Source: an uncultured bacterium
Lineage (GTDB): Bacteria > Patescibacteriota > Minisyncoccia > Minisyncoccales > RBG-13-42-11
Length of the DNA: 64,000 nt
Direction of reading: 5' to 3'
Assembly (NCBI GenBank): GCA_963790795.1
Contig: CAWBPO010000003.1
Span: 50,855-114,854, forward strand
This document shows, piece by piece, positions 17,197-18,338 of the stretch. How positions within the stretch are numbered: position 1 is the stretch's first letter; each line of letters opens with the position of its first letter. The notes beneath the pieces are model-generated. The model was given only the letters and a program-made list of their open reading frames with translations, was not told the origin of the DNA and searched no databases. The position numbers and the translations under genes were made by a program.

Positions 17197-17217
17197 CCCG
17201 CCATTAATATAGGCGGG
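17197..17217 (-). terminator. terminator-like hairpin after the tRNA operon
   Basis: Minus strand CCCGCC-TATATTAAT-GGCGGG followed by a U-rich stretch, immediately 3' of tRNA-Asp. Confidence 0.5.
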
Positions 17218-17224
17218 AAATTTA

Positions 17225-17302
17225 TGGCGGGCGCGACGGGATTTGAACCCGTGATCTTTCCCGTGACAGGGGAATATGTTAACCAAACTACACTACGCGC
17301 CC
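17225..17302 (-). tRNA. tRNA-Asp(GTC), CCA encoded
   Basis: Hand-folded cloverleaf: acceptor GGGCGCG/CGCGCCC, anticodon arm TTCCC-CTGTCAC-GGGAA, T arm ACGGG-TTCAAAT-CCCGT, 3' GCCA. Confidence 0.9.
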
Positions 17303-17303
17303 T

Positions 17304-17379
17304 TGGTGCCGACGGTCAGATTCGAACTGACGACCCCTGCCTTATGAAGGCATTGCTCTAACCACTGAGCTACGCCGGC
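17304..17379 (-). tRNA. tRNA with CAT anticodon and G1-C72 pair (elongator Met, or Ile2 if lysidinylated), CCA encoded
   Basis: GCCGGCG TA GCTC AGTGGTTA GAGC A ATGCC TTCATAA GGCAG GGGTC GTCAG TTCGAAT CTGAC CGTCGGC A CCA. Confidence 0.85.
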
Positions 17380-17387
17380 GGAAATTG

Positions 17388-17728
17388 TTGCGGGGGCCGG
17401 AATTGCACCGGCGTCTCGAGGTTCTTAAAAGCTCTTTGTTTCCAAAAAGAATGGACTATCCCATCTCCCTCTAATTGTTAAAAGTAGGGAGTCCTTATTA
17501 TAGTCTCTGAACCTTTCTCTCACCACAATATATTGTGGTGAGAAACTTGGCTGCTGATTGCCGAATCATCTCTTTTTTTAGCATTCACGCTTGTCTTTAC
17601 AGAGAACGTTGTAGCAAGAGACGCTCTAACGGGTTCCCAGCAATTTAAAGGATTTTTCTGAAGATGTTTCCATTTTCAGCCACATTTTTAGATATGGGCC
17701 TCGCAAGGTACTACTCCTCCACCCCGCG
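17388..17728 (-). tRNA. initiator-type tRNA-fMet(CAT) interrupted by a group I intron (exons 17728-17694 and 17423-17388)
   Basis: Exon 1 is CGCGGGGTGGAGGAGTAGTACCTTGCGAGGCCCAT. Exon 2 is AACCTCGAGACGCCGGTGCAATTCCGGCCCCCGCAA. Joined they give a 71-nt cloverleaf with a C1:A72 mismatch and anticodon CAT. The acceptor and T-stem strings match the E. coli tRNA-fMet I remember (CGCGGGGTGGAG...TCCGGCCCCCGCAA). Confidence 0.85.
17424..17693 (-). ncRNA. group I self-splicing intron (270 nt, no ORF) in the tRNA-fMet anticodon loop after U36
   Basis: The 5' splice site follows U (CCCAU|AUCU) and the intron ends in G (UUUUAAG|AA). P1 CCAUAU/AUGUGG has U.G at the splice site. P2 and P9 carry GAAA loops. 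P3 is UCCUU/AAGGA, P4 UGCUG/CAGCA, P8 CUCCCU/AGGGAG. Core strings are UUCAGAGACUAUAAU and CAGCCAAGU. Confidence 0.8.
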
Positions 17729-17741
17729 GCAAAACATTTTA

Positions 17742-17769
17742 ATTATACTTTCTTTTTCAAAAAAATCAA
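17742..17769 (-). promoter_or_regulatory. sigma70-like promoter for the tRNA operon
   Basis: Minus strand TTGATT, 16-nt spacer, TATAAT. The -10 box ends 12 nt before tRNA-fMet position 1. Confidence 0.5.
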
Positions 17770-17771
17770 CA

Positions 17772-18338
17772 CTAGAAAGCATCCATATCTCTTAATGCTT
17801 TTTCATAAATACCCAATGCTTTTTTAACCTCATCCAGAGATAATTTGTAATCAGGACCATGAACAATATTGTTGCGAACATGATGAGCCTCTCTAATTTC
17901 CTCAATATTAGGAAGAGTGGCTGCGGTTAATTTGTTCAGGTTTTCTCCCAATGAAGCACCAGCATATCCCATCTTTTTCAAAACATCGTTCATCATATTG
18001 TCAGCTTCAATTACGGCCAGCTTGTATTCCGACTCCAAACCGGTATCCAGCCTGACAATAATCTTTCTCCAGTCTTTTTCCATCTTTTTTACTCCAAAAG
18101 GGCGATAGCTCAAAAATTCAGCCGCATCATACAGAATAAGCATTCTCAGCCAAGAGGTTTTAAAAAGCGCAAAAATAATAAAAACTATCGCAGAGAGAGC
18201 TAAAACCAAAAAAGCAATCTTGAAATAGAAAATCAAATTATCAAAAGCATGAGAAGAAAAAAACAACGTTAAATTCTCCAAAAAGTTTTCAATTGTTTCC
18301 ATATAATTTGGCTGTTTCCATAATTTTATCTTCTTCAA
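17772..18338 (-). CDS. hypothetical membrane-anchored protein
   Basis: 188-aa ORF with one TM helix (IAFLVLALSAIVFIIFALF). The start is uncertain and overlaps the gatA 3' end. Confidence 0.55.
   Translation of the reverse strand: MKKIKLWKQPNYMETIENFLENLTLFFSSHAFDNLIFYFKIAFLVLALSAIVFIIFALFKTSWLRMLILYDAAEFLSYRPFGVKKMEKDWRKIIVRLDTGLESEYKLAVIEADNMMNDVLKKMGYAGASLGENLNKLTAATLPNIEEIREAHHVRNNIVHGPDYKLSLDEVKKALGIYEKALRDMDAF

Follow-up and report, generated by a model that had tools for sequence, protein, structure and literature searches.

The initiator tRNA gene of a groundwater Candidatus Nealsonbacteria organism is very probably a functional gene in which a compact group I ribozyme without an endonuclease gene is inserted between tRNA positions 36 and 37. 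It lies on the minus strand of the 64,000-nucleotide (nt) stretch of contig CAWBPO010000003.1 that was analysed (hereafter, the window); the host belongs to a lineage of the Paceibacteria/Parcubacteria in the Patescibacteria. The fold and boundaries of the intron, the intact exons, the initiator-type features of the tRNA and the sporadic distribution of the intron among relatives are all directly visible in the sequences compared. Catalysis would be performed by the intron itself, as its conserved core suggests. The window gene is probably the only initiator gene of the genome; if so, translation initiation would be dependent on splicing, and each round of protein synthesis would depend on a ribozyme.

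Re-reading of the minus strand gave CGCGGGGTGGAGGAGTAGTACCTTGCGAGGCCCAT for exon 1 (17728-17694) and AACCTCGAGACGCCGGTGCAATTCCGGCCCCCGCAA for exon 2 (17423-17388), in exact agreement with the coordinates and strings of a first-pass annotation that had proposed a split initiator gene here (all features are listed in Table 1). As that annotation had stated, the joined exons make a 71-nt cloverleaf with anticodon CAU, and ARAGORN folded the spliced sequence as a normal tRNA-Met(cat). Relatives were collected as contigs carrying orthologues of the 176-amino-acid (aa) protein encoded beside the gene (58–74% identity). Seven syntenic lineages have an uninterrupted 71-nt tRNA(CAU) at the corresponding position. 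The predicted spliced product differs from the uninterrupted orthologue of two of these relatives (L005/L007) at one of 71 nt (G9 in the window, A9 in L005/L007), and it is this near-identical uninterrupted gene that places the junction at CAU/AA (the slash marking the splice site). A one-base ambiguity between 36/37 and 37/38 was settled as 36/37 because this leaves U at position −1 and G as the last intron nucleotide (omega-G). Both residues had been pointed out in the first-pass annotation, and both are invariant in the 33 sequences of the intron family described below.

The intervening 270 nt had been read as a group I intron, and the Rfam model RF00028 (Intron_gpI) matches 17703-17432 on the minus strand over the full length of the model (positions 1-253), with 89.5 bits (E = 1.5e-21) against a gathering score of 50. 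In another Nealsonbacteria lineage, the orthologous locus matches this model with 86.9 bits. All the helices proposed earlier, P1, P2, P3, P4, P6, P8 and P9, are present, P8 as CUCCC/GGGAG. P7, which was absent from that list, would be formed by GACUAU/AUAGUC, two perfectly complementary strings at the canonical place; it is the helix that bears the guanosine-binding site in group I introns. The minimum free energy (MFE) fold of the intron alone has −81.1 kcal/mol (z = −4.2 against 200 shuffles), and this single-sequence structure recovers P1, P2, P3, the P5 extension, P6, P8 and P9. No open reading frame (ORF) longer than 43 aa in the ORF list overlaps the intron, which is therefore without a homing-endonuclease gene (HEG). 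The spacer between P7 and the 3' strand of P3 is AAU only, and the loops of P2 and P9 are GNRA-like throughout the family, with GAAA in the window intron. IA introns characteristically carry a P7.1/P7.2 hairpin in the spacer from P7 to P3'. With its compact core lacking P7.1/P7.2 and its GNRA loops on P2 and P9, the intron looks IC3-like in architecture.

Species-representative genomes were scanned with the core pattern AAGGTTCAGAGACTA-N25-55-RGATAGTCC, which retrieved at least 119 loci. At least 48 are of the published tRNA-Asn 35/36 type, and at least 31 are further tRNA(CAU) genes with the intron at 36/37 and an initiator-type acceptor. Exon 1 is 35 nt long in 30 of the 31 listed loci and 37 nt long in L096. 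Their record titles name Saccharibacteria (12), Parcubacteria/Paceibacterota (7), 'Patescibacteria group' (6) and 'bacterium' (3), the rest being Yanofskybacteria, Nomurabacteria and one Azotimanducaceae metagenome-assembled genome (MAG). The last of these (L075), a MAG assigned to a gammaproteobacterium, has a split initiator tRNA of the Patescibacteria type and may be misbinned. A binning error may also account for L122, a Bathyarchaeia MAG with an intron-split tRNA that ARAGORN calls as the same type as several Limnocylindria (Chloroflexota) loci. The first-pass annotation, whose structural reading is upheld wherever it could be checked, had considered such a gene unusual in the candidate phyla radiation. 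This view does not survive the scan, as nearly all of the additional genes are labelled Patescibacteria, nor does it fit the literature, a 2026 survey describing group I introns in Patescibacteria tRNAs (PMC13011429). Intron-split initiator tRNA genes are a widespread class in Patescibacteria, not a singular oddity.

The 31 listed loci were aligned with the window and with L009, the intron-bearing relative (33 sequences). RNAalifold returned P1, P2, P3, P4, P5, P5a-c, P6/P6a, P8 and P9, to which P7 was added as a pseudoknot. In the resulting 66 pairs in 13 helices, 97.2% of 2067 cells hold standard pairs, as compared with 38–45% when the 3' partners were slid by 1-3 columns. Both sides have changed in 44 of the 66 pairs, and the covariation score was 0.523 as against 0.08–0.11 in the slid controls; none of 500 shuffles matched the observed values. 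Double changes affect four of five pairs in P3, two of three in P5, six of six in P5a, five of five in P6a, three of five in P8 and six of six in P9. The U36.G wobble at the 5' splice site is invariant in all 33 sequences and the neighbouring P1 pairs covary. At P1 pair 3:60, which joins tRNA nt 33 to the guide, the combinations are U-A (25 sequences) and C-G (8 sequences) without exception, and the ribozyme guide therefore tracks the anticodon loop of its host. The intron family targets the YCAU/A site of initiator tRNAs across Patescibacteria. Individual members have insertions peculiar to their lineage: in a Yanofskybacteria locus (L126:6798-7115), ∼44 nt are inserted in the P1 loop and the P5 extension is rebuilt, and the intron of L147 is longer by ∼50 nt after P9 and has U instead of G beside P7'.

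Default ARAGORN and the Rfam tRNA model both miss the split gene. ARAGORN in intron mode agrees on the span and on the 270-nt intron length, but it starts the intron 5 nt earlier (offset 31) and calls tRNA-Leu(aag). Fourteen of the 31 listed relatives are likewise reported as tRNA-Leu, with anticodon cag or aag, in intron mode, and nothing is reported without it (L021, L027, L028, L035, L041, L044, L050, L074, L075, L077, L130, L131, L133 and L139). Taken at face value, these calls would make the window gene a tRNA-Leu with anticodon AAG and displaced boundaries. There is practically no chance that they are correct: the shift puts G, not U, at −1 and abolishes the P1 U.G wobble, the intronless orthologues read CCCAUAA with anticodon CAU, and the long variable arm required of a Leu tRNA is absent. 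ARAGORN intron mode was rejected as a boundary caller, as it misplaces the intron in the window and in family members, and boundaries were instead re-derived from the rule of U at −1 and omega-G together with the requirement that the joined exons form a valid cloverleaf. For split initiator genes in Patescibacteria genomes, the tRNA-Leu calls in intron mode and the missing calls without it amount to a systematic annotation error. Because tRNA finders miss or mislabel these genes, many such genomes will appear to have no initiator tRNA or to have a spurious Leu tRNA, which distorts analyses of tRNA complement and genome completeness.

The initiator identity of the split gene is indicated first by its acceptor stem. 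The C1:A72 mismatch of bacterial initiators, recognized in the first-pass annotation, is seen in the window; all nine clade orthologues have C:A or A:A (A1:A72 in L019), and the 31 other listed family hosts have A:A (17), C:A (11) or U:A (3). The annotation had also likened the acceptor and T stem to those of Escherichia coli tRNA-fMet. This holds for the acceptor stem and discriminator A73, which are identical, but one base of the T stem is different. Among E. coli sequences, the best match is a cluster of three tRNA-Met genes lying between mltA and amiC (77–79% identity over the full length, median of four places per genome), which we take to be the initiator genes metZ-metW-metV. At 11:24 the window has A:U, a purine11:pyrimidine24 combination.

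A very unlikely alternative is that the split gene encodes an elongator tRNA-Met or a tRNA-Ile2(CAU), the neighbouring CAU tRNA or another gene being the initiator. Insertion at CAU/A is classical for tRNA-Ile2 (Ile2.5Ug, according to 10.1101/2020.01.27.920355). In addition, the run of three G-C pairs in the anticodon stem is incomplete, two clade members (L014 and L017) have the elongator-like U11:A24, and three of the 31 listed family hosts have the U1-A72 pair. Against this stand the C1:A72 or A1:A72 mismatch of the window, of the nine clade orthologues and of 28 of the 31 other listed hosts, as well as the identity of acceptor and A73 with E. coli tRNA-fMet and the metZWV match. The adjacent CAU tRNA, moreover, has a normal G1-C72 pair and an encoded CCA. 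Similarity to E. coli was uninformative as to the identity of this second CAU tRNA, its best match being a tRNA-Thr.

The unusual features to which the first-pass annotation had drawn attention, C33, A29:U41, the T loop UGCAAUU and the lack of an encoded CCA, are all present. All nine orthologues share them; they also have a variable loop of 4 nt and read CAA where CCA could have been encoded. As intronless orthologues are included, these are traits of the lineage, and neither decay nor the intron accounts for them. Every stem is retained in the nine orthologues by way of compensatory changes: the T stem occurs as GCCGG/CCGGC, GGCCG/CGGCC, CCCCG/CGGGG and GUGGG/CCCAC, G6-C67 and G7-C66 of the acceptor are replaced by C-G and A-U, respectively, and G13-C22 of the D stem is replaced by A-U. 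The tertiary pair 18:55 also covaries, G18/U55 alternating with A18/G55 without exception among the 31 listed hosts and the nine clade orthologues. The T loop UGCAAUU (17401-17407) always occurs with the D loop AGNAGUA (17708-17714), and hosts with UUCNANU have AGNGGUA; this co-occurrence implies a compensated 18:55 elbow pair. Judged by these comparisons, the oddities appear to belong to a constrained gene rather than to a decaying pseudogene. C33 was also considered as an adaptation to the intron and rejected, since intronless orthologues carry it and it is the guide that matches the host base.

These observations bear on a further alternative, that the locus is a disabled copy whose intron no longer splices and that an uninterrupted initiator tRNA elsewhere does the work. 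Only four tRNAs are visible in the 64-kb window, splicing is judged from DNA rather than RNA, and the tRNA is non-canonical (C33, G55 and two G-C pairs in the anticodon stem), all of which would fit such a copy. Its chance of being right is nevertheless slight. The exons are identical to those of an intronless orthologue at 70 of 71 positions, the non-canonical features recur in all nine orthologues together with compensatory stem changes, and the core helices, U at −1 and omega-G are intact, with covariation across the 33 sequences. A promoter-like site and the place at the head of a conserved array have been kept, and in all the syntenic relatives examined, the initiator-type tRNA of the locus is found at this same place.

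Some observations weigh against a functional split initiator gene. Splicing is predicted from conservation. P7 and its guanosine-binding site are invariant in the 33 sequences and hence beyond a covariation test, since their strings never vary and the search pattern itself demanded them. A textbook bacterial initiator has three consecutive G-C pairs, 29:41, 30:40 and 31:39, in its anticodon stem; here, as in all nine clade orthologues, the pairs are A29:U41, G30:C40 and G31:C39. C33 in place of U33 and G55 likewise depart from textbook initiators, although the intronless orthologues keep both. For P10, no convincing partner could be recognized in the 3' exon. The features that bear on the formal subgroup do not agree, the core being IC3-like yet the P5 extension resembling that of phage introns. 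Finally, no second initiator candidate was found within the 64-kb window (four tRNAs visible), which is the part of the genome covered by this search.

If the gene is functional, as we consider very probable, expression could proceed as follows. The fMet-Met-Asp tRNA array would be transcribed from the putative promoter at 17769-17742 and the intron would fold into its P1-P9 core. The guide AUGUGG would pair with exon CCAU and intron AU, setting U36 in the U.G wobble, and an exogenous guanosine bound at P7 would attack after U36. Omega-G (17424) would then take over the guanosine site, and the freed 3'-OH of U36 would attack after omega-G. Joining of the exons would yield the anticodon loop CCCAUAA. 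End-processing and addition of CCA, which is not encoded, would give the mature initiator tRNA.

Among the nine syntenic Nealsonbacteria-like lineages, the intron is present in two, the window and L009-L012. The introns of the window and L009 are identical at 147 of 148 positions 5' of P6a and at 89 of 92 positions 3' of it, as compared with 65 of 71 exon positions and nucleotide identities of 78–85% for the neighbouring tRNAs and 71–78% for protein genes. A metagenome scan with an intron-internal 24-mer yielded eight more contigs, all with the intron in an initiator tRNA and with differing exon variants. In two of them (L142/L143), there are no differences from the window in 240 intron positions outside P6a; their exons differ at 4 of 71 positions and the syntenic flanking genes are 68–74% identical. 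As the intron is less diverged than the surrounding exons, it must have arrived after the hosts split. This implies that the intron lineage has moved recently between divergent hosts by lateral transfer. With an identical core, hosts that are ∼30% diverged and no endonuclease gene, it offers a clean natural case for HEG-less intron movement. An intron-bearing and an intronless contig of one metagenome (L140 and L017, respectively) have identical exons and were considered as alleles, but their flanks are 82–87% identical and they therefore represent related species.

Candidate routes of movement are uptake of DNA followed by homologous recombination in the highly conserved exons, the action of an endonuclease in trans, and reverse splicing. 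The last requires 4-6 nt of complementarity to P1 only and has never been directly shown (PMC3984707). A free-standing two-domain LAGLIDADG gene (Pfam LAGLIDADG_3 and a weak LAGLIDADG_1 match) lies between the tRNA-Met and tRNA-Asp of the array in L009 (5895-6512) and L014 (3789-4460) and is absent from the window. It was rejected as a mobility factor because it does not correlate with the intron in this small sample: L009 has both, L014 the gene only and the window the intron only. Plasmid and phage vectors were also rejected, there being no plasmid match for the intron and the phage matches being limited to the P3-P5 module, with 73–78% identity.

P6a (17516-17545, minus strand) is hypervariable within this intron lineage. 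Up to 18 of its ∼30–37 positions differ between variant types, as compared with 0–7 differences in the 240 positions outside it between hosts (window, L009, L140, L141, L142 and L147). At least four variants exist, and the hairpin is formed in each copy folded (window, L009, L140 and L142). P6a looks like a swapped or fast-diversifying cassette. It could be imagined that the endonuclease-less intron spreads actively between divergent Patescibacteria, its GUGR guide directing reverse splicing into the YCAU/A site of initiator tRNA, after which reverse transcription and recombination would complete the move, P6a being an exchangeable or fast-diversifying cassette; we regard this as unlikely. If true, it would be unusually direct evidence from nature that group I introns can move independently of an HEG, and translation initiation in these minimal cells would be hostage to a mobile ribozyme.

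Table 1. Features of the split initiator tRNA gene, its intron and the tRNA array, in window coordinates.
Feature	Position	Strand	Remarks
Exon 1, initiator-type tRNA(CAU)	17694..17728	−	35 nt, ends CAU; collinear with intronless orthologues; acceptor 5' strand, D arm, anticodon stem 5' strand, loop C32 C33 C34 A35 U36
Group I intron	17424..17693	−	270 nt, starts with A, ends with G; between tRNA positions 36 and 37
Exon 2	17388..17423	−	36 nt, followed by CAA, not CCA; A37 A38, anticodon stem 3' strand, 4-nt variable loop, T arm (loop UGCAAUU), acceptor 3' strand, discriminator A73
P1	17680..17697	−	Exon CCAU and intron AU paired with internal guide AUGUGG; U36.G wobble at 5' splice site
P2 hairpin, GAAA loop	17658..17679	−	Compensatory changes in 8/9 pairs across family
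P3 5' strand UCCUU	17648..17652	−	Partner 17496-17492; 4/5 pairs compensatory
P4 (UGCUGG/UCAGCA), P5 (CCG/CGG), P5a-P5b-P5c extension	17552..17642	−	Family alignment fold
P6 (GCC/GGU) and long P6a hairpin	17511..17551	−	P6a is the hypervariable part in this intron lineage
P7 5' strand GACUAU	17500..17505	−	Complementary to 17459-17454
P3 3' strand AAGGA	17492..17496	−	Family alignment
P8 hairpin CUCCC...GGGAG	17465..17491	−	3/5 pairs compensatory
P7 3' strand AUAGUC	17454..17459	−	Complementary to 17505-17500
P9 hairpin, GAAA loop	17433..17448	−	6/6 pairs compensatory
Omega-G, final intron nucleotide	17424	−	Invariant G before exon AACC, 33/33 family members
Putative sigma-70-like promoter TTGATT-16 nt-TATAAT	17742..17769	−	13 nt upstream of exon 1; 10/12 positions match
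Second tRNA(CAU)	17304..17379	−	G1-C72 pair, CCA encoded; elongator Met or Ile2
tRNA-Asp(GUC)	17225..17302	−	CCA encoded
Putative terminator hairpin CCCGCC-9 nt-GGCGGG, then UUCUGGUUU	17197..17217	−	GC-rich, U-rich tail

The split gene heads an array with the two downstream tRNAs, both encoding CCA, that the first-pass annotation had recorded. The spacers between the tRNAs are 8 nt and 1 nt; together with the promoter-like site and the terminal hairpin, they suggest that the three tRNAs are co-transcribed. The hairpin was not in the scan list, because its 9-nt loop exceeds the loop limit of 8 nt used in that scan. The flanking genes are all on the minus strand, with gyrB, pheT and pheS on one side of the tRNAs and the 176-188-aa protein, gatA, gatC, mreB, proS and rseP on the other. 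The order proS-mreB-gatC-gatA-176aa-[tRNA CAU, tRNA CAU, tRNA Asp]-pheS-pheT is conserved in nine lineages. The 176-188-aa neighbour (17772-18338, minus strand) has an N-terminal hydrophobic stretch, no Pfam match above threshold and weak matches to HEPN families. It has more than 450 homologues, and all of those with a taxon name are Nealsonbacteria.

The array looks like an insertion hotspot. Extra ORFs in or near it differ among relatives, and the window has none between tRNA-Asp and pheS. In Nealsonbacteria RBG_13_38_11 (L003:4459-5499) and a relative (L004:3069-4109), the array lies on the strand opposite to the flanking genes, and the initiator tRNA is set apart from the Met-Asp pair by a 259-aa ORF without a Pfam match. 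Other extra ORFs encode a 228-aa product with a sub-threshold match to a resolvase-type helix-turn-helix (L009:5073-5759), products with weak Ku-like (L013:3961-4797) and phosphoribosyltransferase (L017:3848-4588) matches, and one with no Pfam match (L005:4954-5670).

The closest parallel in guide logic is the Azoarcus intron, in which a GUG guide pairs with CAU through a G.U wobble, and which is ∼200–270 nt long, has no endonuclease ORF and carries GNRA loops on P2 and P9. Likened by description to this type, the window intron shares the guide logic, the compact size, the lack of an ORF and the GNRA loops. The insertion point is also common to both, the Azoarcus-type tRNA-Ile2(CAU) intron ('Ile2.5Ug', IC3) lying at CAU/A, 36/37, according to a 2020 preprint (10.1101/2020.01.27.920355). 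Unlike the Azoarcus type, the window intron resides in an initiator tRNA, belongs to the Patescibacteria and, by the same description, has a P5a-c extension and a long P6a.

A group I 5' splice site normally needs U at position −1, and as position 33 of the window tRNA is C, the 33/34 site known for introns of initiator tRNAs cannot exist there in its usual form. The four classical types of bacterial tRNA intron given in the preprint are Leu 34/35, Arg 36/37, fMet 33/34 and Ile2 36/37, all IC3, and the types are extended there to 21 (10.1101/2020.01.27.920355). The tRNA-fMet introns at 33/34 ('fMet.2Ug') are reported from cyanobacteria and other bacteria, and some encode the PD-(D/E)XK endonuclease I-Ssp6803I (PMC13011429; PMC3984707). 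Those introns resemble the window intron in being group I introns in the anticodon loop of an initiator, and their sporadic occurrence has been read as evidence of lateral transfer (PMC13011429; PMC3984707). They insert after U33, whereas the window intron inserts after U36 and has no endonuclease gene.

The nearest relatives by phylum are the introns surveyed by Nakagawa et al. (2026) in 95 complete Patescibacteria genomes and 4,934 complete bacterial genomes (PMC13011429). The survey describes introns in Asn, Asp and Tyr tRNAs at 35/36, in 'Met(CAU)' at 33/34 in Microgenomatia and in Phe at 33/34, as well as divergent Thr introns; self-splicing in vitro was demonstrated for those of the Asn and Asp tRNAs (PMC13011429). 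Its authors state that no Patescibacteria tRNA intron was classed as IC, and they class the Asn introns as IA (PMC13011429). As described there, these introns resemble those reported here in phylum, in general size, in mostly lacking an endonuclease gene and in being missed or mislabelled by standard tRNA finders (PMC13011429). The J6/7-P7 and P7' core strings are also common to the Asn 35/36 introns and the window family, a single pattern having retrieved at least 48 of the former and at least 31 of the latter. Parsed by eye, an Asn intron from Table S4 of the survey (GCA_016700035.1) has a hairpin between P7 and P3', where the window intron has AAU only (PMC13011429).

Introns in phage genes show a more limited likeness. 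Those of E. coli phage W70, near primase/helicase, and of the Twort-like Staphylococcus phage CF5 share with the window intron the P3-P4-P5 extension module (∼113 nt, 73–78% identity), which contains ...CUACAACG...CGUGAAUG... Only a third of the window intron aligns, and the phage introns sit in protein-coding genes and have genes for an HNH or 'intron encoded nuclease' as neighbours. A similarity this low is incompatible with a recent vector relationship. In CF5, four Rfam group I matches lie head to tail over ∼1.1 kb (L149:1156-2288), with a virion structural gene on one side and an 'intron encoded nuclease' on the other.

An intron at 36/37 of a Patescibacteria initiator tRNA is not named in the searchable text of the literature, the type table of the preprint being an image (10.1101/2020.01.27.920355), and the designation 'fMet.5Ug' was not found in that searchable text. 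None of the 25 Patescibacteria cases in the accessible text of the 2026 survey is an initiator tRNA split at 36/37 (PMC13011429). The present family adds the initiator tRNA at 36/37 to the described set of Patescibacteria tRNA group I introns.

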